Shown: positions 9,990 to 61,493 of the stretch, one piece after another
Layout: every line of letters begins with the position of its first letter
Position numbering within the stretch: position 1 is the first letter of the stretch
Assembly: GCA_963714085.1 (NCBI GenBank)
Contig: OY970229.1
Location: 376,392 to 440,391 of the forward strand
DNA length: 64,000 nucleotides
Origin: an uncultured Candidatus Micrarchaeota archaeon
GTDB lineage: Archaea; Micrarchaeota; Micrarchaeia; Anstonellales; Bilamarchaeaceae
Reading direction: 5' to 3'
Translations under genes and position numbers: made by a program
The notes under the pieces: generated by a model
Databases searched by the model: none
What the model saw: the letters and a program-made list of their open reading frames with translations, nothing else
What the model was told of the DNA's origin: nothing

Positions 9990-10409
9990 ATGCGGGATAA
10001 TAAACATATGGTGCAACGGAGATACTACCGGCAGATAATAATCCGCTATGTCGGGATACCCGAGCCGGAAGAGAACGCAGACAATGAGATAGACTACGTG
10101 TACCAGTGCCTCGGTTTGGGGGACGAGCGCGACGATGTCGGAAGACACGTGTTCCGCGCGCTCGTGAAAGCGGGCATGCGGGGCGAAGGGATATTGTCGC
10201 GCGACCTGATGCAGCTGAGCGAGGTGAGCCAGGCCGCGGTGATATACCATCTCAACACGTTCCAGCGCTCGGGCCTCGTGATAAAGGATGGCAGGAACTA
10301 TTATTTGCGCGGGCGCACGCTCGCCGCTACTTTGGAAGAGATGGAGAACGACATGCAGCGCAGGTTCGAGCATCTGAAGACGATAGCGAAGAAGATTGAA
10401 GAGAGATAG
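9990..10409 (+). CDS. Winged-helix (ArsR/TrmB-like) transcriptional regulator
   Basis: ..ILSRDLMQLSEVSQAAVIYHLNTFQRSGLVIKDGRNYYL.. has an HTH plus wing. ATG 10008 is an alternative start. It is divergent from the Hsp70 operon. Confidence 0.75.
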   Translation: MRDNKHMVQRRYYRQIIIRYVGIPEPEENADNEIDYVYQCLGLGDERDDVGRHVFRALVKAGMRGEGILSRDLMQLSEVSQAAVIYHLNTFQRSGLVIKDGRNYYLRGRTLAATLEEMENDMQRRFEHLKTIAKKIEER

Positions 10410-10432
10410 GCGAGCGCATTGGGAGTTTTTTC

Positions 10433-10684
10433 TTATTTGTAAACATTCTTCCTGTGCCCGATTTTCAGCACCTCGATTAGTTTTTTTTGCTCGTTTATGT
10501 CCATAAGAACGCGATAGTCGCCCACCCTGAGTTTCCAGCAGTTCACGTCAGTCAATTTCTCTACGAAATGATATGGCGCCAGTTCGAGTTCGACCACTTT
10601 TTTTATTACGCGGCGCGCGGTTTCCGGATCCAGATTCTTGAAGCATTCTTTTGATTTAGGCGACCAGACTATCGAGTATGCCAT
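10433..10684 (-). CDS. RelE/ParE-superfamily toxin (type II TA)
   Basis: MAYSIVWSPKSKECFKNLDPETARRVIKKV..L...P.....KL....CWKLRVGDYRVLMDI......IEVLKIGHRKNVY is the canonical RelE/StbE pattern. Its ATG directly abuts the upstream antitoxin stop. Confidence 0.85.
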   Translation of the reverse strand: MAYSIVWSPKSKECFKNLDPETARRVIKKVVELELAPYHFVEKLTDVNCWKLRVGDYRVLMDINEQKKLIEVLKIGHRKNVYK

Positions 10685-10927
10685 CTAAAGACCCAGGTCC
10701 TTGATCAGCTGTTTCGTGGTCAGCCCTTTCCCTCCACTAAGCTGCCTGCGCGCGATTGCGATGTCTTTCTTCGTGTGCTCGCTTAGCTCGCCCTCGGATT
10801 TGAGCTTCTCGTAAACGGTAATCATCTTGTTTATCACTTCCTCGTAGCTTTCTCTGGCATAGTCCTTAAGCACGGAAAGATGCTCCTTGGTTTCCTTGTG
10901 TATCAGGATGGTTGTGTATTCTGACAT
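10685..10927 (-). CDS. Cognate antitoxin (small, helical)
   Basis: An 80-aa ORF directly upstream of the toxin with a 0-nt spacer. The track start at 10936 is GTG; the first ATG is at 10927 (MSEYTTILIHKETKEHL...). There is an AT-rich promoter upstream. Confidence 0.7.
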   Translation of the reverse strand: MSEYTTILIHKETKEHLSVLKDYARESYEEVINKMITVYEKLKSEGELSEHTKKDIAIARRQLSGGKGLTTKQLIKDLGL

Positions 10928-10982
10928 ATATATCACATATAGCTAATGTATATGCATATATATAAATGAATCTTTCACGCTG

Positions 10983-31100: not shown

Positions 31101-34100
31101 CCCGTATGGATACACGCCTACGCCGCTCACGCTGCTCGGAAGCACGTATGTGCCCGGAGCGCTTATCACCTGGCAGGGGATGCTCGTCGGGATCTCGAGT
31201 ATGCCATAAACGCTCGCCGGATTCATGTTCCTGAGGCCCAGGATATCGGCGGTCGTGTCCGGAGTGCCGTTCAGCAGTACCCAGCCGGAGCTGTATTTCC
31301 AGAGCCCGAAGGTGCTCTCGTTGTGTCCGGAGGATCCTGTGTCGGTCCAGCTCCAGACGATGCTGTTGATGGACAGCGGATTGGAGCCGGGCGTTATGCT
31401 TATGCTCACGAACTCCTGCGCGAATGGTTCGTAGCCGAACGGGGGGGTGGCCGGGGCACCGCTCCAGTTGACTGAATACGATTGGGTGTTGTTACCCAGA
31501 GTGGTGTTGATGGACAGGTTGGTGTAGTTCTGCATGTTGCCCAAAGGGTTGTCAAATATGAGGCTGGAGAAGTTGGATACCATCGGAGAACCGGAATTGT
31601 CCAGCACCTCCATATCCGGACTGTTGTTGGAGAAATGCATGCCCTGCACAACAATCTGGTTGGAGTTGAATATCAGCAGGCCGATATTGGAGCTGTTGAA
31701 CGCTGCGTTGTTGGAAAGCTGGGTGGAATTGCTGTTGTTCAGTTCGAAACCGTACCGTCCCGATGCGTTGTCGCCCGTAAGATTGCCGTTGTTGCTCTGG
31801 TAGAGGCAGATGCCGAAGCTTAACCTGGAGGTTGCGGTGGAGCTGGTGATATTGTCGTTGGGACTATTGTAAATGTCGATTGCGATACTGTTCGTGGTGG
31901 TGGCGTTTGAATTGGAGATTGTCGAGGAACTGGCATTGCAGAATATTATCTGTTCCGTATCGTTTCCATTCAGGACCACCCCGTTCTGGTTATTGTAGTA
32001 GAGTATCGGCTTGCCTGTGCCTCCGCTATTGTTGTTGAGCGTATTGCTGCAGTCGCCGTAGAACCCGAAACCGCCGTTCATCGTCGTGTTGCTGACCATG
32101 TTGTTGGAGCTCAGGTAAAGGAAGACACCGGAGCTTGAGGCGGATGTTCCGGTGGAGCTGTTGAGGTTGTTGCTGTTGCTAGAGGAAAGGACGATGCCAT
32201 AGCCTGAGGAGGATGTCCCGGTGGAGTTGATGAGGTTGTTGCTGTTGCTAGAGGAAAGGACGATGCCGTAGCTTGAGCTCGATGCCCCGGTGGAGTTGAT
32301 GAGGTTGATGCCGGAGCTTGAGGCGAGGCAAATGCCGTAGCTCGAGGAGGATGTCCCGGTGGAGTTGATGATGTTGTCGATGCCTGGGCTTGAGTATATA
32401 ACGATGCCGTAGTTTGAGATGGATGCCCCGGTGGAGCTGTTGAGGTTGTTGCCTGAGCCTCCGTAGATGACGATGCCGTAGCCTGAGGAGGAGGCCCCGG
32501 TGGAGTTGATGAAATTGTTGTTGTTGTTGGTGGCGTCGTAATTGAGTTGGATGCCGGAGCCTGAGGAGGACGCCCCGGTGGAGTTGGTGAAGTTGTTTCC
32601 GGAGCTTCCGGAGAGGTCGATGCCTGCGTATCCGTTGGAGGTTGCGTTGGATATTCCGGTGAAGTTGACGAATATGTTGCCGGAGGACGAGGCGAGGACG
32701 ATGCCGTGGGTTAAGTTGGATGCGGCGGTGGAGCTGGCGAACGTGTTGCCGGAGGCCGAGGAGAGGAGGATGCCGTAGTTTGAGTTGGATATGGCGGTGG
32801 AGTTGGCGAACGTGTTGCCGGAGCTTGAGAGGACGTAGATGCCGTAGCGCGAGTTGGACGTTCCGCTGGAGCTGGTGAAATTGTTGTTGTTGGAGCTCGT
32901 ATCCAGGTTGATGCCGAAACCGGAGTTGCAGTTTCCGGAGGAGTTGGCGAATGCGTTGTTGGAGCTCGAGGAGAGGTATATGCCCGCGTTTGCGTCGGAG
33001 GGCGCCTGGCAGTTTCCGGTGGAGTTGGCGAATGCGTTGCCGGAGCTTGATTGGAGGTATATGCCGTAGTATGTGTTGGTGGTTCCGTTGGAGCTTATGA
33101 ATGTGTCGTTGGAGCTCGATTGTACGTAGATTGCGATGCCGTTTGTGCTGGTGGCGTTCGTATTGGAGATTGTCGAGGAGCTGGCATTGCAGAGCATCAC
33201 CTGCTCGGGATGGATTCCGTTCAGGATCACCCCGTTTTGGTTGTTGTAGTAGAGTATCTTCCTGCCGGTGCCGGCAGTGATGTTGGTGAGGTTATTGGTG
33301 CAGTCGGCGTAGAACCCGAAATCGCCGCTCAACGTATCGTTGGTGAATATATTGTAGGAGCTCGAATCGACGTAGGCGCCAAGGCCGCCGTCGGAGTTTC
33401 CGGTGCAGTTGGTGAACGTGTTGTAGTTGGAGCTTTGGGAGAGGGCGAAACCCGAGCCTGAGCCGAAGCCTGCGCCCGAGGTGATGGTCGCGGTGCAGTT
33501 GGTGAAATTGTTGTAGACGGCGCCTCCGTCGAGGCCGATGCCGGCGATACCACGTGCAACATATCCCGAAGAGGTGTTTGCGGTGCAGTTGGTGAATGTG
33601 TTGTTGGCGGAGCCGTGGAGGTAGATGCCGTTGTTTCCCCCGGGGGTGGTTGCGATGAGATTGACGACTGTGTTGCCGAATCCGCCCCACATGACCATGG
33701 CATCTCCCCCATTTCCAAAGCCAACTTGGCCGGAGGTTGCGGTGCAGTTGGTTAATATGTTGTTGTTGCAGCTTGCGTAGAGCTCGATGCCGTTGCCTGA
33801 GGCGGAGGTTCCGTTGCAGTTGGTGAGATTGTTGTTGGAGCAGCTGTAGAGGTCAATGCCGATGCCTGAGACGGCGATTCCGGTGCAGTTGACGAGTGTG
33901 TTGTAATCGGAGCCCGAGTAAAAGTAGATGCCGTCGTTTGATGAAGAGCCTGATGAAGCGGTGGTTCCGGTGCAGTTGGTGAGTGTGTTGTTGTTGGAGC
34001 CCCAGTAGAAGTAGATGCCGTGGTACCAGCTGGAGTTTCCGGTGGAGTTGGTGATATTGTTGTTGGAACTCGACTGGAGGTAGATTCCGGGAGCGTATAC

Positions 34101-35789
34101 GCTGGTGCCTTTTGCATTGAAGATGGTCGAGTAATTGACACCGCAGAATACTATCTGTTCTGTATCGTTTCCGTTCAGGACCACACCGTTCTGGTTATTG
34201 TAGTAGAGTATCGGCTTGCCGCTGCCGCCAGTGATGTTGGTGAGCGAATTGGTGCAGTCGGTGCCACTACCGAAAGCCATGCTGAAACCGCCGTCCATCG
34301 TCATGTTGGCGATTCTGTTGTAGGAGCTTCCGGGATCTATGTAGAAGGCGTAGAATGGTGCGCTCTTTGCGTAAGAGTTGGTGAAATTGTTGCTGGAGCA
34401 TCCGGAGACGCGGATGCCAAGCGCCCCGGGCCCGCCGTAGGTGGTTGCGTTGAAGTTGATGAATGTGTTGTAGTTGGAGGCTGAGTGGAGGTCGAGGGCG
34501 TCGGTTGAGACTGTGATTGCGGTGGAGTTGATGAACGTGTTGTAGTTGGAGTTTTGGTAAAGTAAAACAGCATAATATCCCCCGGAAGTGCTTCCGGTGG
34601 AATTGATGAATGTGTTGCCGGAGCTCGATTGGAGGTAGATGCCCGGTTCATAGCCGGTGGTTCCGACAGAGTTGGTGATTGTGTTGTTGGAGCTTGATTC
34701 GAGGGAGATGCCGTAGCCTACGCCGCCGCCTGTGCCGACAGAATTGGTGATCGCGTTTCCGGAGCTCGATTGGAGTGAGATGCCGTAGTATTCGTGGAAT
34801 CCGCCGCCCCCGCCGCTGTACGTTCCCGTGGAGTTGGTGATACTGTTGTTGACACTAGATAAGAGCGCGATGCCGGCGTAGGTCGAGGAGGAGGTTCCGG
34901 TAGCGTTGATGATCGTGTTGTTGGAACTCGAGTCCAGCACGATGCCGGCGTAGGTCGAGGCGCCTTTTCCAGTACAGTTGATGATTGTGTCGTAGGAACT
35001 CGCGTAGAGGTAGATGGTTCCGTTGGAGTCGATGATGTTGCTGTTGTTGGAGCCGAAGAAGTATATGCCGGAGTTTGACCCGGAGCTTTCTTTGGAGTTG
35101 GTGATGCTGTTGTAGTTGGAGTCGAGGACATATATGCCGTAGCCCGAGCTTGAGTTTGCGATGGAGTTGGTGATTGCGTTGCCGGAGCCTGATACGAGGT
35201 AGATGCCGTATCCTGAATTATAGGTCGTGCTCACGTTTGTGCCGGCTATCGTCCCGTTGGATGCGGAGCTGAAATTTATGCCGCTTGAGAAGTTGCTTAT
35301 GATGCAGTACGTGATGGTCGTGTTGAAGTTCGAGGTGTAGACCCCGTATGTTCCGGTCGCGTTGTTTCCGGTCAGCGAGTTGCCCGCGCAGGAGATCGTC
35401 ACGTTGTCCGCGGTCACATTGATGCAGGTTACGGTTGAAGTCTGCGGCCCGGTTACGTTGTACACCGTATTGGGCGAATCGGCCGTACAGCCGCAGGCCA
35501 GGTTTGCGCTGTTGCATGACGCCGCGAAGCTGATGCCGCAGAACATGAGAGATACGATGATTCCGGTCAAGAGCGCTCTGGGGGATAGGAACCAGATAAG
35601 GACTCCCATGGCAACCAGGCAGGATATCGCAAGCGCACCAGCGGCGCCGAGCGGCATATTGTTTGCATAGGATATCCGCGTGCTCCCGGTTTGAGATGGC
35701 TGGGTATGGATTAGAATCACGCAGAGAAGTAACGATACGACCAAAGCTAATAGCATCGCTGCGAGCGCACTACCTGCACGTTTGTGCAT
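28164..35789 (-). CDS. Giant surface protein, paralog 1 (2541 aa): beta-helix repeats, Ig-like modules, poly-Gly linker, Cys-rich plus beta-sandwich module, C-terminal TM anchor
   Basis: The N-terminal region is hydrophobic. It has dozens of ~22-aa coils (..SSSGNAITNSVGTGGGVGYGISLESSSNNTITNSVGT..) full of N-x-S/T. The junction motif DCTNxLTNITxGxGxxILYYNNQNGVxLNG occurs 3 times. There are three ~95-aa Ig-like repeats (..TVPSVTLNSPYN..). The C-terminus reads ...YYWALPIIVIMILAYLAYRKLRGGNKKD. Confidence 0.9.
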   Translation of the reverse strand: MHKRAGSALAAMLLALVVSLLLCVILIHTQPSQTGSTRISYANNMPLGAAGALAISCLVAMGVLIWFLSPRALLTGIIVSLMFCGISFAASCNSANLACGCTADSPNTVYNVTGPQTSTVTCINVTADNVTISCAGNSLTGNNATGTYGVYTSNFNTTITYCIISNFSSGINFSSASNGTIAGTNVSTTYNSGYGIYLVSGSGNAITNSIANSSSGYGIYVLDSNYNSITNSKESSGSNSGIYFFGSNNSNIIDSNGTIYLYASSYDTIINCTGKGASTYAGIVLDSSSNNTIINATGTSSSTYAGIALLSSVNNSITNSTGTYSGGGGGFHEYYGISLQSSSGNAITNSVGTGGGVGYGISLESSSNNTITNSVGTTGYEPGIYLQSSSGNTFINSTGSTSGGYYAVLLYQNSNYNTFINSTAITVSTDALDLHSASNYNTFINFNATTYGGPGALGIRVSGCSSNNFTNSYAKSAPFYAFYIDPGSSYNRIANMTMDGGFSMAFGSGTDCTNSLTNITGGSGKPILYYNNQNGVVLNGNDTEQIVFCGVNYSTIFNAKGTSVYAPGIYLQSSSNNNITNSTGNSSWYHGIYFYWGSNNNTLTNCTGTTASSGSSSNDGIYFYSGSDYNTLVNCTGIAVSGIGIDLYSCSNNNLTNCNGTSASGNGIELYASCNNNILTNCTATSGQVGFGNGGDAMVMWGGFGNTVVNLIATTPGGNNGIYLHGSANNTFTNCTANTSSGYVARGIAGIGLDGGAVYNNFTNCTATITSGAGFGSGSGFALSQSSNYNTFTNCTGNSDGGLGAYVDSSSYNIFTNDTLSGDFGFYADCTNNLTNITAGTGRKILYYNNQNGVILNGIHPEQVMLCNASSSTISNTNATSTNGIAIYVQSSSNDTFISSNGTTNTYYGIYLQSSSGNAFANSTGNCQAPSDANAGIYLSSSSNNAFANSSGNCNSGFGINLDTSSNNNNFTSSSGTSNSRYGIYVLSSSGNTFANSTAISNSNYGILLSSASGNTFASSTAASNLTHGIVLASSSGNIFVNFTGISNATSNGYAGIDLSGSSGNNFTNSTGASSSGSGIQLNYDATNNNNNFINSTGASSSGYGIVIYGGSGNNLNSSTGASISNYGIVIYSSPGIDNIINSTGTSSSSYGICLASSSGINLINSTGASSSSYGIVLSSSNSNNLINSTGTSSSGYGIVLSSSNSNNLNSSTGTSASSSGVFLYLSSNNMVSNTTMNGGFGFYGDCSNTLNNNSGGTGKPILYYNNQNGVVLNGNDTEQIIFCNASSSTISNSNATTTNSIAIDIYNSPNDNITSSTATSRLSFGICLYQSNNGNLTGDNASGRYGFELNNSNSTQLSNNAAFNSSNIGLLIFNSNQIVVQGMHFSNNSPDMEVLDNSGSPMVSNFSSLIFDNPLGNMQNYTNLSINTTLGNNTQSYSVNWSGAPATPPFGYEPFAQEFVSISITPGSNPLSINSIVWSWTDTGSSGHNESTFGLWKYSSGWVLLNGTPDTTADILGLRNMNPASVYGILEIPTSIPCQVISAPGTYVLPSSVSGVGVYPYGPNGYGWTACILINSTSNVVFDCAGHTVNSTGSGSQPTQVAIQNSTNVAVRNCILNLSNVSIGLAVYNSSNSMIRNNSAYGSSAQVPYEFDDDATAINSSFINNSASGTTGFTYADGTFATYANNTAANLTGDVFNFGGRNSTVTGNTIINCSNPFAINGNRSNFTSNLVVNSGSGFDLEGSWDRVIGNNVTNSSGIGFNVQGGDYNTLQNNIVNNDSQEGFLVFDAVSNNLSNNLAYNDTDGFDVESDGLSMTALNNLTNNLAANNSGNGFYVEFGLNNTFFSNNATGNGYGFYISDSNGTILSGTYFHKNSYDFIVNNTIGLSSSNYSMVNSIFDNPLGGMQNYTNLSINDSVNSGESYTINWTCNSSSLPAGKASFAQTFANISVQGGTVSIDSIAWSWTNPEASGYNQSRFQLWKYSGTWTMLNNTPDIVFDTLGYTNLNPASIYGILQDNDTTPPAVNLIAPLSGTISNVSSVTFSFNTTDDASTTMNCSMYIDGILNQTNTSVQNGTTTVFPLVSGIPDGFYRWNVTCTDQSNNLGVSAARNFTVDTTVPSVTLNSPYNLSLLNSSSVSFNFTATDNLAQKMSCLLFLDNVPNQTNSSVNNNTATVFNVSGISDGNHTWYVNCTDNAGNANTSETRSFNSSSVLPNIALNSPANGASYTSSTPITVNLIFTATDAMSPTMNCSLYLDGLLNYTNASVVSGSPDQISVLTALGSYAWNVTCRDIFNNTNSSATYGFTISSGGGGGGGGGGGSGGGGGGYGGGGGGGGGIESPIIPTGNVTLEHPVPQKNACALDADCSGSEACLGGTCKPMNGTCGFAANHTWHSYECCADADCPVANICVAHKCEVLDLTGDNEGLVGGQGTVTVTLDGQPLPDASLQIMLPDGASFNTVTNADGQFLLPLDFQGNYTVKLMLAGVSVKMHPIAVGLSPPATQVSRPAVVQQPLNYYWALPIIVIMILAYLAYRKLRGGNKKD
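28785..28868 (-). repeat. Imperfect GGN (plus-strand GCC/ACC) triplet tract encoding a 28-residue Gly linker
   Basis: It encodes GGGGGGGGGGGSGGGGGGYGGGGGGGGG, located between the Ig-like modules and the Cys-rich C-terminal unit of paralog 1. Confidence 0.9.
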
Positions 35790-37531: not shown

Positions 37532-40500
37532 GCCACGGAGCCGTTATAATCGTTAGAGATCGGGCCGAACGAGGTGATGTCGTTGGAGCCTGCCGGGCCG
37601 TCCGATATGCCCGTGACCTTCTCATTGCTTCCGTCGCTCGAGTAGATGTGGACCTCGACGCTCGGCGAGCCTCCGCTGTATCCTTGCGGGTGCGCGGAAT
37701 CGTTGATATTGATGTCCTTGGAGTCGAACGACACGATGTCATGGCCAAGCGTGAGGTTTTCAGCGACGTTGCCTTGAGAACCGGAATTCGAGGAGAATGC
37801 CCAGTTGGCGTTGCCCGATGCATTGCAGCCGCTGAAGACATTGTTTTGGGAGGAGCCCAGATAGAAACCGTATATGGATTCCGTGGCGGTATCGTTTGTC
37901 ATGTTGCTGGAGGTGACATCATCGAACTCATAAGCGTACTGGTTGTTGCCGGATGCGGAGCTGCCAATGATGCTGTTCGAGTCTGAAAACCACATGAGGA
38001 ATCCGGGGTTGCTGTTGTTATCTGCGGAGTCGTTCAGGTACGTGCCGTTGTTGCTCTGTCCTATATCGAAGCCGAAGTAGTTGTAAGACGAGGATGTGTT
38101 GTTGATGGTGGCGTTATCGTTATAGTATATCAGGAAACCGTCATTGTAAAGCGTGTCGGAGCCGTTGACTACGCTGTTGGTGACATTGGAGCCTGTTGCA
38201 CCGCAAAGCTCGATCTCAGCGGCGTCCAGGCTGTCCCAAGAGACCGGGTCGCTGAAGTAGTAGATGGGACGGTATGCCGAGCCGGTCGTGTTGGTGATGT
38301 TGTTCTGGCATCCATCCGGGCTGGCATACGGGTAAAAAGGATCGACATAGAGGTCCAGATAGCCGTTCTCCATGGCGCTGTTATTGGACAGGACGTTCTG
38401 GTTCGACGCATATAACACGATGCCGAAGTAACGGTTGTTGTTGGCGCTATCGTTGTCCATGGTGGTCTGGTTCGACGCATAGAGCTCAATACCCAAATAA
38501 CTGCTGTTGTCGGCGCTATCGTTGTACAAGGTGTTGTTGTTGCTCATGTCTAAGAAGATGCCTTCGCTGGAGTCGTTGTCGGCGCTATTGTCGTATATGT
38601 TATTGTTGTTGCTGTCTAGCAGGTCAATGCCGAAGAAACTATTGTCGACGTTATTGCTGTATATAGCGTTATTGTCCGTGGCGTCAGTGTTCGATCCATC
38701 AACGAGGTAGATACCCGAGCCGTAGTTGTTGTTGGCGCTGTTGTTGTAGATGTTATTCCAGCTCGATTGTTCGATGTTGAACCCATCCCCCCAACTGCTG
38801 TTGTCGGCGATATTGTTATACAGGTTATTGTTGTTCGAATACCAGAGGGAGATGCCGCTCCAATTGCTCTCGGCGATATTGTTAAACAGGATATTGTTGT
38901 TCGATGAGCCGAAGATGATGCCGTCCTCGCTGTTGTTGTTTGCGCTGCTGTTGGACAGGGTATTGTTGTTCGATGATTGGAGATAGATGCCCCATTGGCC
39001 GTTGTTGTTTGCGCTGCTGTTGGACAGTGTATTGTTGTTCGATGATTGGAGATAGATGCCCCATTGGCCGTTGTTGTTTGCGCTGCTGTTGGACAGTGTA
39101 TTGTTGTTCGATGATTGGAGATAGATGCCCCATTGGCCGTTGTTGTTTGCGCTGCTGTTGGACAGTGTATTGTTGTTCGAATAAAGTATGTAGAAGCCAT
39201 CGTTACCGTTGTTGTCGGCGCTGATGTTGGATACGGTGTTGTTGTCCGAGGAACTGATCGCGATGCCATAGTTGTAGTTGTTGTCGGCGCTGTTGTTGAA
39301 TATGGAGTTGTTGGTTGAATTAGAGGTAACTAGAATGCCGATGCTACCTTCGTTGTCGGCGCTATTGTTGTACACGGTATTGTTGTCCGCTGAAACGAGG
39401 CTGATGCCTAAAGCTGCGTTGTTGTCGGCGATGTTGTTGGATAGCGTATTGCCGCTCGGTGGTGGATAATACGCGGGTGCTTCATACATGCCGATGCCGC
39501 AGTAGCCGTTGCCCTCGGCGTCATTGTTGAACAGGGTATTGTTGGTAGAAGACGCGACCGCGATGCCGTAATAGCGGTTGTTGTCGGCGCTATTGTTATA
39601 CACGGTGACATTGTTCGACATACAATTAACGTAGATGCCGCTATTGGGGCCGTTGCCGGCGACGTTGTTGGACACGTTAATATCGTATCCCGATATCTCG
39701 ATGCCGTAGTAGTCGTTGCTTAACCTATTGTTATATATGCTGGTGTTGGAGCTCGCAATGTTGAAGAGGCTGGTGCCGTATGCCCCATCGCCGAAGTAGA
39801 TGCCGTGGCCGTATGTCATACAGCTGTAGGGGAACGTATAAGGACTGGTGCTGTTTTCGATGATATTGTCATATATGACGTCATTATTGCCCGCCATAGT
39901 GATGCCCCCTGCATTGTTGTTGTTGAAGGTATTGTTATACACGGTGGTGTTGTCGGACGCCCCAAATAAGCCCACAGACGTGTTGCTGACGCTATTGAAA
40001 GACAGGTTGTTGTTGTTGCAGGTCTGCTCACCAAGGTCGATGCCGGCCCCGAATGCGTTAGTGATACTATTGTTATACAAGGCGTTGTTGCTGGAAGCGG
40101 TAAGCGTGATGGCGCCGCTGTTCACGTTGTAGATATTATTGTCATAGAATACGGACTGGTTCACCGAATTGAGGCTGATGCCGCCATAGCTTGCGTTGTA
40201 GACGCTATTGTTATAAACGGCTATCTGAGTCGCTGCGTAGACGGCGAAACCCAGCACGCCCACGTCGAAACCGTCGGGGGTGAAATAAATCGGGCCGTTG
40301 TAGGCGGTATTGTTGTATGCGGTGTTCTGGGACCCGCTCAGCGCGAACGCCAGCTCGAGGGAGTGGGCGGTATTGTTGTACATGGTGTTGTTATTGCTCG
40401 ATGGATCGACCCGGATGCCAGCTCCAGCGTCGTAGTAGAAGACATTGTTATACATGGTGTTCTGGCTCGAATTGACGAGCCAGATGCCATTGCAAACCGC

Positions 40501-44400: not shown

Positions 44401-47400
44401 TATGGAGCCGTTGTACGCGTTGGAGGTCGGGCCGAAGGAGGTTATGTCACGGGAGCCTGAGGGGCCGTCTGATATACCTGTGACTTTGTCATTGATCGCT
44501 TCGGTCGAGAGTATGTCCACCTCGACGCTAGGCGAACCGCCGATGTATCCTTGCGGCGGCCCGGACTGCTGGACGTTCACGTCCTCCGAATCGAATGAGA
44601 CCATGTCATTGCCGAGCGTGAGGTTGTCCACGATGTTGCCCGTGGAACCCGAGTACGAGGAGAACGCCCAGACGGAGTTGTCGGACGCGTTGAAGCCGCT
44701 GAAGTTATTGCCCTCTGCAGAATAGAGATAGATGCCAATCGGGTTGCCGGATGCTGAGCTGCCGTTGATGCTGTTCGGGCCCGATGATTCCATGTCGAAG
44801 CCATGATACGCGTTGTCGTCTGCGGTGCAGTTGGAGAGGCTGGAGGCGGAGAGCGCGTCCGCATAGAAACCCTGGTAGCCATTTGCGATGGCTGAGTCGT
44901 TGGAGTACACGCCGTTGTCGTCGTATAGCATCCCGAAGCCGAGTGCGTTGTAGGACGAGGCCGTATTGTTGATGGCGGAATTGTCCGTGTAGTACTCCAG
45001 GAAACCGTCGTTGTAGAGCGTGTCCGAGCCGTTGACCACGCTGTTCGTGACATTGGAGCCGTCCGCGCCGCAGAGCTCGATCTCGGCCGCGTCCAGGCTG
45101 TCCCAGGAGACGGAGCCGTTGGAGTAGTATATCGGGCGGGATGCGGAGCCGACCGTATCCGCGATGTCGTTCTGGCAGTCGCTCGATGAGAGCGGGTACA
45201 CATAAAGGTCGAAGTAGTTGTTTTCCATGGCGCTGTTGTTGTACAATGCGTTCTGGCTCGACGAATAGAGCATGATGCCGTTCCAGGTGCTGTTGTCGGC
45301 GACGTTGCCGGACAGGTTGTTCTGGTCCGAGTATTGGAGGTAGATGCCGCCATAGTCGTAATCTGCGCTATTGCCGGAGATGGCGTTCTGGTCCGATGAG
45401 TAGAGGGAGATGCCGTAATTGCCGGAATAGTTGTCGGCGCTGTTGTTGGCCACGTTGTTCTGGTTCGAGGAATCGAGGATTATGCCGGAATATCCGTTGT
45501 CGGCGTCGTTGTCCACGATGCTGTTCTGGTTCGATGACTCGAGATCGACGCCGCCGCCGCTATTGTTCACGATGCTGTTGTTGGATACGCTGTTCTGGTT
45601 CGAGCTGGTAAGGTAGATGTCAGGGAAATAGTCCATGCTGGCGATGGTATTGTTATAAACGGAGTTCTGGTTCGATTGGTCGATATAGACGCCTTCCAGG
45701 ATGCCGTCGATGCTGTTGTCGTGCAGGGCATTGTGGTTGGACGAGTAATAGACGTAGATTGGGCTGTTCGTGTAGTAGAAGCTGCTGTTGTATAGAGCAT
45801 TGTTGCTCGATGAATAGAGATGGACGCCCGAAAAGCTGTAGTTGAAGCTGTCGTTGCATATGACATTGTTGTTCGATGAAGCGAGGGATACGCAGGTGCC
45901 GCTGCTGTTGTCGAAGCTGCTGTTCGCGAATGTGTTGCTGTTGCTCGATGAGACGAGGGCACCGTAAGTGCTGTTACCGAAGCTGATGTTCGAGAAGGTG
46001 TTGTTGTTGCTCGATGATACGAGGTAAGAGTCGTAAGTGCTGTTCTCGATGCTGATGTTTGTCATGGTATTGTTGCTCGATGAGGAGAGGTAAATGCCGT
46101 AGGTGTTGTCATCTAGGATGAGGTTCGAGAGCGTGTTGTTGGCGCTGTAGGCGGAGCCGGGGTACCAGTAAACGGAAGTGAAATAGACGCCGTAGGTGTT
46201 GTTGTCGATGACGCTGTCGGAGACATAATTGTTGTTCGAAGGGGCGAAGTAGATGCCGTACTGGTTGTTGCTGATGTTATTGCCGGAGAGGTTATTGTAG
46301 TTGCCGAAAAGCAGGTAGTAACCTGCAAAGATGCCATAGTGGTCGCCGCTGATGTTATTGCCATAGACGGATTCGCCTGTCTGGGCGTAGAGGTAGATAC
46401 CGCTGTTGGTGTCGTTATCGACGGTGTTTCGACAGACTGTGCCGCCGCTTGCTGAAACGATCGAGATGCCATAGGCGTTGTCGCTGGCATTGTTATCATG
46501 CACGTAAACGTTATTGCCGGCATAGGCAAATACGTAGATGCCGTAACTGTTGTTGGTGGCGCTATTGTTATAGACAGCGCTGTTTGGCGTAGAAATGTAT
46601 ATCCCGTAGGTGTTGTTGTAGGCGATGTTATTATCGATGGTCGCATTCTCGTAGCCGTACTCCCCAATCGAGAGTATGCCGCTTAGGCTGTTGCTCACGA
46701 CGTTGTTATAGATGCTGACGTTGTCCGAGTAATAAGAGTAGATGCTGTAATTGTTGGTGTTGCTCACACTATTATTATAGACGGCAACATTGGGCGCCGG
46801 TCCATTGTAGACGCCCACTTGGATGCCCATGTCGAAGGAGTTGTTGACATTGTTGCTGTAGATGCTGGCGTTAGTCCCGCTAACGAGGATGCCGTTGGGG
46901 GCGCAGCCATCGACAGTGTTGTTATAGATCTGAACGTAGAGTAGGCCGTCGGAATAAGACTCGCTAGAAGCGGTTATGCCGTTGTTGGTATTGTAAGGAC
47001 CCTGATTTCCGTCGTTAATGACGACATTGCTGTAGATGCTGCTCTTGTTTCCTATGAAATCGATTCCGTGGTCGCTCTGGTTAACTACGATATTGTCATA
47101 GATGCTGCTATTGGAGCCTTGAAGGACGATGCCGTCATAGGAGTTGTTATAGACGTTATTGCCATAGACGCTGTTTCCAGACCCGGGCCCGAAGAACATG
47201 CCTCCGTAGTTCCCGTATATGTTATTGTTGGCAATGGTGTTGTTATTGGTAGTCGTGCTGAACCCGCCTCCGTAAATGCCGTAGTAGGTGCCGCCAGTGA
47301 TGTTATTGCCCGTGATTGTGTTGTAGTTGTTGCCGTTGGCGCTGTTCGGAATATAAAAATCAATGCCGATGTCGCATTTGCTTAATATGTTGCCGGAGAT

Positions 47401-59675: not shown

Positions 59676-60565
59676 AGACGCTCAAGTTGCTCGCCACGCA
59701 GATCGGCGGCGAGATCGGAGGGGACGTGAAGGAGGCGTTCGCGGACATATCCTATTTCGTCCGCAGGGGGCACAGTGTGTGCGGCGATTCGGCGTTCGTG
59801 CACGTGGACGACTCGAAGGTGGTCGCGGCGGTGCTGGACGGCGTGAGCGGCGAGGAGGGCGCGGACCACGCGTCTTCGGTGGCCGCTGTGGCGATCGTGA
59901 ACTATCTCAGGGGCATTGCGGCGCCGGACAAGGACGATATACAGGACGCGTTCGTGAAAGCGCACATCAACCTCTCCTTCGGGCTCACCACCGTGGTGCT
60001 TGCCGTGATAATGAAGGATGGGAGGTTCCTGTGCGGCTCGGTGGGCGACTCGATGGCCTATTCGCTCGACACGAAGGGGACCGTGAGGCTGGAGCTGCCG
60101 GGGGCCAGGGTGGTCGGGCCGGGCACGCCGATCCTGCGCTTCCTGATGTACAGGAACGTGGTGCCTGCGGCGCTCGGCATGCAGGGCGGCATGGAGATAC
60201 TCTTCAAGCAGGGGGAGCTGAGGCAGGGGGATTCCATCCTGCTAATGAGCGACGGCGTGACGGACAACCTCACCATCTACGTGGAGGATGGCGTGGTGAA
60301 GGACTGCGGCGGCGCCAAGGACCTCGCCCTGATGGTGGAGGGTGCGAAGGACACGAGGTCCGTCGTGAGGCGCATACGGGACGAGGTGGTGAAGAGGATG
60401 GAGGAGAGGTACGACATCCGGGACCCGGACCGTGTGCTGGTCGCCAAAAAGGACGACGTGGCGCTGATAGGCATCAGGTACACCGGAACCGGCATCGTCG
60501 GAGCGGGGGTTGGACGCCCGTCTAAGATTAGACGCGCGTCAAAGAAAAAAAGGAAAGGTTTATAA
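59672..60565 (+). CDS. PP2C/SpoIIE-like protein phosphatase
   Basis: ..CGDSAFVHV....VAAVLDGVSGEEGADHAS.., ..CGSVGDSMAYSL.., ..LLMSDGVTDNL... ATG 59672 overlaps the trm1 stop. The track's 59522 start is an out-of-context extension inside trm1. Confidence 0.8.
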   Translation: MKTLKLLATQIGGEIGGDVKEAFADISYFVRRGHSVCGDSAFVHVDDSKVVAAVLDGVSGEEGADHASSVAAVAIVNYLRGIAAPDKDDIQDAFVKAHINLSFGLTTVVLAVIMKDGRFLCGSVGDSMAYSLDTKGTVRLELPGARVVGPGTPILRFLMYRNVVPAALGMQGGMEILFKQGELRQGDSILLMSDGVTDNLTIYVEDGVVKDCGGAKDLALMVEGAKDTRSVVRRIRDEVVKRMEERYDIRDPDRVLVAKKDDVALIGIRYTGTGIVGAGVGRPSKIRRASKKKRKGL

Positions 60566-60569
60566 ACGA

Positions 60570-60953
60570 AAAAATCGCAACTTCTATGTCGGTGCGGGCT
60601 GAATGGCCCTACGGGGCTTAAGAAAACCGCGCCGGCCGTATGACCGTTTTTCGCGGTCACATGAAAAAACTGATGCCGGGCCGGTGGATAACCGGGCGAT
60701 GCTGGCTTAGACCCTTTTATCGGGAAAACGCCAAATCGTCTGCTGGAATGGAATTATCCGTCCAAAACCGCTCCGGCTACAGGGAAAAACAAGGCCGAAC
60801 CGGTGGATAGTGGGCGAGGCTGGCTTAGACCCTTTTATCGGGAAAACGCCAAGCGTCTGCTGGAATGGAATTATCCGTCCAAAACCGGTTCGGGGATGAT
60901 TCGAATTCTGATGGTTTGCATAGGCTTACTGAATGGCTTATCCTGCGATTTTT
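60570..60953 (+). ncRNA. Candidate structured ncRNA (~385 nt) of unknown class, containing a tandemly duplicated hairpin domain
   Basis: The helices are nested. 60570-60579 pairs with 60944-60953 (10 bp). 60583-60589 pairs with 60918-60924 (7 bp, 2 G.U). 60590-60597 pairs with 60627-60634 (8 bp, 1 G.U). There is a hairpin at 60641-60646/60654-60659. The two domains are closed by 60676-60684/60768-60776 and 60795-60803/60885-60893. The island sits within a 496-bp noncoding gap in an otherwise tightly packed region. T5 at 60949-60953. Confidence 0.4.
60675..60894 (+). repeat. Tandem ~117-119-bp direct repeat (two copies)
   Basis: Cores at 60681-60770 and 60800-60888 are identical except in two short patches. 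Both contain gctggcttagacccttttatcgggaaaacgcc...gtctgctggaatggaattatccgtccaaaaccg. Confidence 0.9.
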
Positions 60954-61061
60954 CCGGAGTAGCGACACACTAAAACACCGAATGCCATGGAAAATGCGCT
61001 GGAAACAAGCGGGAAGCAGCCGTATCTACGGTATTTAAACATTTCCGATGAAAGCACTCTT

Positions 61062-61493
61062 ATGGGTTCAGAATTGAAAGTAGGAGACATCATGACCAAA
61101 AAGGTCGTCGTCGTCCCTACGGGCTCCGGCCTCCTGGACACCGCCAAGCTGATGAGGAAGAACGAGATAGGTTCCATAATCGTCGTCGAGGGCGCTGAAG
61201 GGAAGCGGGCCAAGGGCATCATCACCGAGAGGGATATCGTTCACAAGGTCATAGCGAAGAACCTCGACCCCTACAGGTCGAAGGTCGATGAGGTTATGTC
61301 CAAGCCCCTCAGGGTGGTCAAGCCGGAGACGACGATCGAAGAAGCCGCGAAAGCGATGAGGGAGAACCGGATAAAGCGGCTCCCCGTCGTGAATGACGAT
61401 AATGAGTTGATAGGCATCATAAGCGAGGGGGACATCATGAAGATATTCCCCATAGTGGTCGACCTCATAGAGGAAAGGGCCACGCTGGGTTGA
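61062..61493 (+). CDS. CBS-domain pair protein (143 aa)
   Basis: MGSELKVGDIMTKKVVVVPTGSGLLDTAKLMRKNEIGSIIVVE...GIITERDIV...V.EVMSKPLRVV.PETTIEEAAKAMRENRIKRLPVV. I chose ATG 61062 because tatttaaac (61032-61040) lies ~22-30 nt upstream. The track start at 60987 adds a non-CBS leader. Confidence 0.85.
   Translation: MGSELKVGDIMTKKVVVVPTGSGLLDTAKLMRKNEIGSIIVVEGAEGKRAKGIITERDIVHKVIAKNLDPYRSKVDEVMSKPLRVVKPETTIEEAAKAMRENRIKRLPVVNDDNELIGIISEGDIMKIFPIVVDLIEERATLG

Follow-up and report, generated by a model that had tools for sequence, protein, structure and literature searches.

A modular structured RNA with a putative promoter and operator, found in one clade of Candidatus Micrarchaeota

Introduction

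Bacterial RNAs of the CsrB/RsmY/RsmZ type sequester protein by means of GGA hairpins of about 20 nt that bind CsrA. Among archaea, sRNA154 of Methanosarcina mazei is a small RNA (sRNA) controlled by a regulator, and such sRNAs act through conserved antisense loops. The DPANN archaea have small genomes and, to our knowledge, almost no described regulatory RNAs. Here we analyze a structured non-coding RNA (ncRNA) of one Candidatus Micrarchaeota clade within the DPANN archaea. It lies in a 64-kb stretch of contig OY970229.1 (the window, hereafter), in the gap between a gene for a PP2C-type phosphatase and a CBS-domain gene, and it is built from a hairpin domain of about 100 nt that we call domain A. 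Positions are window coordinates unless a locus is named; W stands for the locus of the window and L-numbers (L002, L005, L014 and so on) for related loci.

The element resembles the CsrB/RsmY/RsmZ RNAs in appearing to be a stand-alone gene with a regulator-controlled promoter, in its repeated units whose number depends on the lineage, and in the conservation of structure and short motifs. However, the units here are irregular hairpins of about 100 nt and there is no CsrA homologue, hence the analogy is functional only and not one of homology. With sRNA154 the element shares an intergenic location in an archaeon, a putative operator beside the promoter and several stem-loops, but the two have no sequence or model similarity and the loops of the present RNA are not conserved.

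Results and discussion

Domain A and its fold in the window

The gap extends from the PP2C stop codon at 60565 to the ATG of the CBS-domain gene at 61062. It contains two direct copies of domain A, 117-119 nt apart, with the following limits and helices:

60676..60776, + strand: domain A, copy 1 (model score 115 bits)
60676-84 with 60768-76, + strand: closing stem of copy 1 (9 bp)
60686-89 with 60760-63, + strand: helix GGAU/GUCC of copy 1
60693-98 with 60737-42, + strand: helix CGGGCG/CGUCUG of copy 1
60703-06 with 60730-33, + strand: helix UGGC/GCCA of copy 1
60712-14 with 60722-24, + strand: apex CCC/GGG of copy 1
60750-59, + strand: possible mini-hairpin GGA-AUUA-UCC of copy 1
60764-67, + strand: AAAA bulge of copy 1
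60795..60893, + strand: domain A, copy 2, of the same architecture, with the perfect closing stem CCGAACCGG/CCGGUUCGG (model score 111 bits)

The tandem duplication of a hairpin domain of about 100 nt, noticed in a preliminary description of this DNA, is therefore real. The outermost part of the domain is a closing stem of 9 bp, followed inwards by a bulge (AAAA) on the 3' side, a GGAY/GUYC helix of 4 bp, a long arm and a 3' segment of about 17 nt. Three short helices make up the long arm, whose apical loop is variable and whose 3' side has a conserved internal loop, GGGAA(A)AC. The 3' segment may fold as a GGA-loop-UCC mini-hairpin, whose GG and CC never vary, and domain A would then be a three-way junction with a third arm of 3 bp at most. 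The closing stems of copy 1 (CCGGGCCGG/CCGCUCCGG) and copy 2 differ in a compensatory manner, as had been pointed out (G-C to A-U and G.U to A-U), and this change is reinforced by the much stronger covariation found in distant homologues. The inner stem GGAUAA/UUAUCC, which had also been considered conserved, shows a C.A mismatch in six of eight close copies whereas the alternative GGAY/GUCC helix is 100% paired. This inner stem was the weak part of the structure first drawn, which is 92% paired over the eight close copies (91% identical); with the GGAY/GUCC inner helix the revised fold is 95% paired on them and two pairs have changed on both sides.

Folding of 60566-60960 gave a minimum free energy (MFE) of -155.4 kcal/mol for the + strand, below that of shuffled sequences (z = -3.96), and of -131.9 kcal/mol for the - strand (z = -3.63), a difference of 23 kcal/mol in favor of the former. 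The frequent G.U pairs would become A.C mismatches on the other strand, which argues for an RNA on the + strand, and all covariance-model matches fall on the PP2C strand. A CTG(G)A(A)TGG-like motif said to recur six times does so, since the gap has six occurrences of CTG(G)A(A)TG[GC] where 0.09 would be expected (none of 2000 shuffles), but two of these occurrences are the two repeat copies and the other four are not conserved in relatives.

Conservation and covariation among relatives

In eleven loci the PP2C gene is immediately followed by a non-coding gap (W, L014, L005, L002, L018, L035, L031, L033, L030, L003 and L006). They were gathered via relatives of the PP2C protein, a genome scan, a metagenome DNA pattern scan and a second protein search seeded from L006, and loci that were identical or the same were merged (L014 = L016, L031 = L032, L033 = L034). 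A first covariance model (R1) was made from the eight close copies of domain A and a second (R2) from 15 copies. In six loci R1 recognized one or more diverged copies in the corresponding genomic position:

L003: E = 2e-5
L006: E = 4e-4, cut by the contig end
L035: E = 2e-22
L031: E = 1e-9
L033: E = 4e-9 and 1e-3
L030: E = 3e-3 and 1e-2

In the L003 domain every helix is of different sequence and yet paired; its closing stem is CGAUGUGA/UCACAUCG and the second, third and fourth inner helices read GAAC/GUUC, GGAA/UUCC and ACAU/AUGU, respectively. Over the alignment of 15 copies, 93% of the cells pair, compared with no more than 50% in slid controls, and both sides have changed in 19 of 26 pairs. 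Sliding the partners by 1-3 columns lowers the covariation score of this alignment from 0.478 to 0.12 at most, and none of 500 shuffles reached the former value. Single-sequence MFE folds computed independently for L035, L033 (copy 2417-2513), L003 and L031 gave the same outer stem and long arm. The apical loop varies in length and sequence, with a 29-nt insert in L006, and the loop sequences drift across the family, except for short A-rich strings, while the helices covary. The helices of domain A are kept by compensatory substitutions on one strand, which is the mark of a structured ncRNA, and the earlier proposal of such an RNA, which we place on the + strand, is supported.

The PP2C protein has few relatives. 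Those of about 40% identity (L004, L007, L010 and L011) have a rhomboid-sized ORF immediately 3' and no gap; the PP2C loci of such more distant relatives do not have the element within 4 kb. The metagenome pattern scan returned one true relative (L014) and two matches, L013 and L015, a number equal to the chance expectation; the domain models score both at E>1. These are unrelated metagenome contigs that carry GGCUUA(A/G)ACCC-hairpin-GGGAAAACGCC (L013 35-64; L015 999-1032, - strand), and one of the two is bacterial, with the site upstream of a bactofilin-like ORF.

Putative promoter, operator and terminator

The following signals surround the two domains:

60510..60543, no strand assigned: two adjacent palindromes, TTGGACGCCCGTCTAA (60510-25) and TTAGACGCGCGTCAAA (60528-43), within the 3' end of the PP2C ORF
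Double palindrome in relatives: L003 3862-3895; L005 1274-1307; L006 4197-4230; L031 3394-3427; L033 2123-2156; L035 3346-3379
60559..60566, + strand: TTTATAAA, putative TATA box of archaeal type for the RNA gene, an A/T octamer being at the same position in all loci
60570..60579, + strand: AAAAATCGCA, 5' arm of a 10-bp terminal stem, located past the TATA box but ahead of the predicted start
60894..60953, + strand: fast-evolving 3' tail ending in ...GGCUUAUCCUGCGAUUUUU, whose T5 run (60949-53) is the presumed archaeal terminator
61034..61041, + strand: TTTAAACA, putative TATA box that serves the next gene (CBS domain) and is separate from the RNA gene; it is shared by W, L014, L005 and L002

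Nine of the 11 loci have the double palindrome TTAGAC-N4-GTCTAA x2 in full, whereas L018 and L030 match it in the second palindrome alone, the first being degenerate. The arms never change but the 4-nt spacers do, which suggests a protein-binding DNA site rather than an RNA hairpin, and most likely the double palindrome is a transcription-factor operator of the RNA promoter. No further TTAGAC-N4-GTCTAA double palindrome occurs in the window. The two palindromes are 18 nt apart and the A/T octamer (TTTATAAA or TTTAAATA) begins exactly 31 nt past the start of the second, spacings that hold in every locus where both elements were mapped by our script. In all mapped loci the first RNA helix begins 21-23 nt after the TATA box. 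As this spacing fits the usual distance between TATA box and transcription start in archaea, the 5' end of the RNA is predicted near 60588. Downstream of the last module there is an oligo-T run in W (60949-53), L014, L005, L031 (T7), L033 and L030. The whole gene of L031 comprises the operator, the TATA box, 23 nt, one domain A (a hairpin of about 97 nt), 10 nt and the T7 run.

The PP2C stop codon TAA (60563-65) falls inside the putative TATA box of the RNA promoter. Members of the window clade have a PP2C ORF that extends across the operator with a K/R-rich tail (...SKIRRASKKKRKGL) and ends at this TAA (60520-60566); in L003, L031 and L033 the PP2C gene stops before the palindromes. A block of about 25-30 nt just 3' of the T5 run (60962-60986, AGCGACACACTAAAACACCGAATGCC) is conserved in W, L014, L005 and L002. 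In relatives it reads ACATATTAAAACATC, with a TATA-like look, and it could be another promoter or binding site.

The gene 3' of the element is the CBS-domain gene in the window clade, TrkH in L003 and L030, and a convergent gene in L031, L033 and L035. The element is thus tied to the 3' end of PP2C and not to the downstream gene, and since the latter differs and is convergent in three loci the element is better explained as a stand-alone RNA gene than as a leader. Given the operator, the RNA is probably conditionally expressed.

We also considered that the element could act in cis, either as 3' untranslated region or terminator of the TruD-Trm1-PP2C operon mRNA or as tandem riboswitch leader of the downstream gene. 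Its invariable position directly after the PP2C stop codon would fit this alternative, CBS and TrkH are typical ligand-linked genes, and tandem aptamers are known among riboswitches. Like those (the glycine riboswitch, for example), the element has two similar junction domains of about 100 nt with conserved junction and bulge nucleotides. A read-through transcript of the operon would, besides, include the 5' arm of the terminal stem (60570-79/60944-53) that had been drawn around the whole element. This stem is present and, judged by eye, between 8 and 10 of its 10 pairs persist in four close relatives, with only 8 of 10 in L014. However, it has no counterpart in distant relatives, a perfect 10-bp inverted repeat arises in 21 of 500 shuffles, and half of it is an A-run facing a T-run. 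Its 5' arm is probably promoter DNA lying outside the primary transcript, and the stem could matter only in operon read-through transcripts. A 7-bp helix proposed next to it (60583-89/60918-24) has no counterpart in L014, as judged by eye. Against a cis element stand the TATA box and operator at fixed spacing just upstream, the unconserved downstream gene, the T-run, the separate conserved TATA box before the CBS gene, the lack of an expression platform and the failure of any riboswitch family to match. A riboswitch or cis leader was rejected on these grounds, and we regard a cis element of either type as quite improbable.

Modular organization of the array

Upstream of the two domains W has two smaller hairpins, and other modules and further domain copies were located in the relatives:

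60588..60636, + strand: hairpin H1, with lower helix 60588-97 with 60627-36 and apical GGCCC/GGGCU 60605-09 with 60614-18
60637..60663, + strand: hairpin H2, CGUAUGACCG/CGGUCACAUG, with a U-rich loop; A-U changed to G-C in L005, L002 and L018
L033 2203-2301: first hairpin, R2 match (E = 2e-5)
L035 3426-3522: first hairpin, R2 match (E = 3e-3)
L030 3388-3487: first hairpin, R2 match (E = 5e-7)
L003 3942-4048: first hairpin, weak R2 match (E = 0.28)
L005 1660-1885: module B, as a tandem duplicate
L002 2980-3095: module B
L003 4160-4245: module B
L030 3581-3680: module B

The 8-bp helix 60590-97/60627-34 and the hairpin 60641-59 of the preliminary description, which correspond to H1 and H2, are present and conserved in five close relatives. 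Pairing in the helices of H1 and H2 amounts to 91.8% over the five close sequences, compared with at most 38% in slid controls, and in five pairs both partners have changed. H1 shows compensatory changes in L018 (G-C to A-U) and L014 (C-G to U-A). The loop of H2 contains a T5-T6 run (60647-60651) in W, L014 and L005 that could terminate or attenuate transcription early, some 60 nt from the start of the RNA. The first module of the window clade is a shortened one and consists of H1 and H2. Module B is a second module of about 110 nt that lies 3' of domain A in some relatives (...UACUGUWAUYCAU...CGCUUCGUCC...CUUAGGCUCGCGAAGCC) and is absent from the window.

Domain A is present once in L031, twice in W, L014, L005, L035, L030 and L003, and three times in L033. 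The element had been depicted as one large molecule of about 385 nt nested in the terminal stem, a picture that does not hold because the L031 gene has a single domain of about 100 nt and the others have two or three domains plus other modules. The gene is instead a modular tandem array of one to three domains, W having two of them after H1 and H2 and before the variable tail. Copy 2 of W and copy 2 of L014 both have the AA/UU closing stem, which places their duplication before the split of the two species. The three L033 copies are highly diverged from each other. From the shared AA/UU stem and this divergence, the multi-domain arrays appear to be old and maintained.

Assemblies tend to break within the repeat, as at the ends of L001 (4059) and L006 (4373). 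Two ENA contigs (P0002) with an identical PP2C protein have gaps of 450 and 674 nt, which suggests copy-number polymorphism or assembly collapse. These breaks, the different copy numbers among close relatives and the fact that both strands fold better than shuffles would be compatible with an element that has no RNA function, that is, a tandem repeat at the DNA level, a remnant of a miniature inverted-repeat transposable element (MITE) or a protein-binding DNA array. Yet the substitutions are compensatory and preserve G.U pairs on one strand in spite of almost no shared primary sequence, the position is constant, and promoter and terminator signals frame the element. Nor is it dispersed: the only domain A copies in the window are the two tandem ones, it occupies the same locus in the 11 relatives, and scans of viral contigs gave no matches with one pattern and 11 chance matches with another, none of them fitting the model. 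A MITE or dispersed repeat was consequently rejected, and any explanation at the DNA level seems very improbable to us.

Search for known RNA families

The window had no match in Rfam 15 at the gathering score. At E<=10, W 60450-61150, L005 1300-1930 and L003 3880-4300 gave no match to RNase P, signal recognition particle (SRP), 5S, riboswitch or ribozyme families, and a search of the relatives at E<=1 returned chance matches only; the chance-level matches across these loose-threshold scans were to WT1-AS_2, ctRNA_pGA1, STnc410 and GlsR14. Leaving the RNA without a class, as the preliminary description did, was correct. No tRNA or transfer-messenger RNA was found by scanning and, as expected for an archaeon, a bacterial promoter and terminator scan gave nothing. 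No description of such an RNA was found in the literature searched. The RNA family is therefore new in having neither an Rfam family nor a match in that literature, although its broad kind, modular small RNAs under the control of a regulator, is already known.

The element might also be a highly divergent housekeeping RNA (RNase P RNA, SRP RNA or 5S rRNA) of a reduced DPANN genome, and no gene for any of the three was found elsewhere in the window. The likeness to archaeal RNase P RNA (RF00373, RF02357) lies in a similar total length, a 5'/3' terminal helix that can be drawn, and the strings GGAUAACCGGGC and ACUGAAUGGCUUAUCC, which loosely resemble the CR-I and CR-V consensus; the likeness to 5S rRNA lies in size and three-way-junction topology. 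The preliminary description had remarked on the resemblance to CR-I and CR-IV/CR-V, but comparison with relatives did not bear it out. In L014 the CR-V-like tail GGCUUAUCC is altered to GGCUCAUCC, L005 has no such tail, and the pairing of the tail with GGACAACC fails, as judged by eye; the CR-I-like string pairs locally inside the covarying, duplicated hairpin of domain A. RNase P RNA was rejected on the missing covariance-model match, the absence of conserved P4 strands and the presence of one to three domains, with a minimal homologue of about 100 nt (L031), instead of a single fixed catalytic domain of about 200 nt or more. Archaeal SRP (7S) RNA was likewise rejected for want of a model match and for the variable apical loop with its 29-nt insert, and 5S rRNA because RF00001 did not match at E<=10 and the third arm is a 3-bp mini-hairpin at most. 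An operator of the regulator type would be unusual for a housekeeping gene, and distant PP2C loci do not have the element nearby. Taken together, a housekeeping RNA is scarcely credible here.

Other classes were also examined and rejected. An archaeal box H/ACA guide does not fit because the ACA after the stem is inconsistent (present in W copy 1, L014, L005, L035 and L031; missing in W copy 2, L018, L003, L030 and L033), the internal loop is one-sided (3 vs 17 nt) and there is no GA/AG signature of a kink-turn (K-turn). No consistent C/D box, K-turn, bulge-helix-bulge, hammerhead or twister core was seen by eye; GGGAUGA...CUGA in the tail has the wrong spacing and is not conserved. Type III toxin-antitoxin RNAs (ToxI-like) have tandem repeats of about 36 nt that, as far as is known, are always followed by the toxin gene. 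The present element resembles them in its promoter, tandem direct RNA repeats and terminator, but its units measure about 100 nt, one copy is enough (L031) and what lies downstream differs between loci; an antitoxin of this type was rejected on context and absence of dispersal. The small ORFs in the gap (56-57 aa) were rejected as coding because the repeat copies differ by 1-nt indels, and a replication origin was rejected since there is no turn in GC skew and the covariation points to RNA.

Neighboring genes and other features of the window

The operon 5' of the gap encodes HTH-CBS, TruD, Trm1 and, last, PP2C. The HTH-CBS protein is an obvious candidate for the factor that would recognize the double palindrome. 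On the 3' side are a DnaG-like Toprim gene and the CBS-domain gene, whose start is at 61062 or 61092. The non-coding gap, which had been called exceptional for the window, is real and unusual but not unique, as it is one of three gaps of at least 450 nt by a crude ORF cover. The other two (1057-2141 and 10374-10982) have no ORF of at least 90 aa by the same cover and no Rfam or tRNA match. Many tandem repeats with a period of 66-72 nt (23-24 aa) occur within long ORFs at 32099-35002, 38397-39393 and 45903-46059; these ORFs look like repetitive proteins of the surface or adhesin type.

Proposed function

We propose that the element is a stand-alone gene of about 60588-60953 (+ strand) for a trans-acting RNA with protein- or ligand-binding domains. 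In this model a transcription factor at the double palindrome would switch the RNA promoter on, and the RNA would act in trans as a multivalent binding platform, either scaffold or sponge. Each domain would use its shape and its A-rich bulges (AAAA, GGGAAAAC, AUCC-GUYC) to capture a single protein molecule, or perhaps a small ligand, by binding or sequestration, and the number of domains would set the binding capacity. Taken jointly, with its well-supported structural part included, we hold this proposal with slightly less than even confidence.

Several points weigh against it. The promoter, start and oligo-T termination are inferred from sequence alone, and the role as sponge or scaffold is argued by exclusion and analogy; no gene for an RNA-binding protein is consistently adjacent. 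The family is small, with 11 loci and about 10 distinct sequences, and its distant copies were aligned by fitting to the model, which inflates the pair counts. Given the variation in copy number among close relatives and the breaks of assemblies in the repeat, some copy counts may be assembly artefacts.

A trans-acting antisense sRNA is a further alternative, in which unpaired segments of the domain, for instance the 17-nt 3' loop CUGGAAUGGAAUUAUCC, would pair with target mRNAs. The stand-alone gene and regulated-looking promoter suit this alternative equally, each domain has a large single-stranded 3' segment, and repeated hairpins with similar loops are typical of such sRNAs. However, the helices covary whereas the loop drifts in sequence within the family, and no site complementary to the 17-nt loop exists within the window, both of which favor binding over antisense pairing. 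An antisense role is accordingly unlikely in our judgment.

One version of the proposed binding RNA may involve mimicry by the domain of a ribosomal RNA site such as the GTPase-associated center. The string GAUG(C/U)UGGCUUAGA in domain A of the window clade is like GAUGUUGGCUUAGA in about 13 of 14 nt, a likeness compatible with chance, the latter being the universal sequence of helix 43 of 23S rRNA (the L11/thiostrepton loop). As in helix 43, the string is in the long arm of a possible three-way junction, but in L003, L006, L031 and L033 it is replaced by covarying sequence.

On a bolder reading, which we hold to be rather improbable, no RNA of the sequestration or receptor type would have been described in Archaea before this one, and it would be specific to DPANN, switched on by a dedicated transcription factor and composed of one to three domains, each capturing a protein or metabolite, whose number would tune its capacity. 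If the element is an ordinary lineage-specific sRNA, its value would be limited to that of a new family for Rfam. It offers, in addition, an example of a structured RNA that grows by tandem duplication of a domain. The operator would be a handle on the transcription factor, and the domain of about 100 nt a handle for the identification of the partner or ligand. An RNA family supported by covariation, with a conserved putative operator and promoter and one to three domains, would represent a new and testable piece of DPANN regulation.

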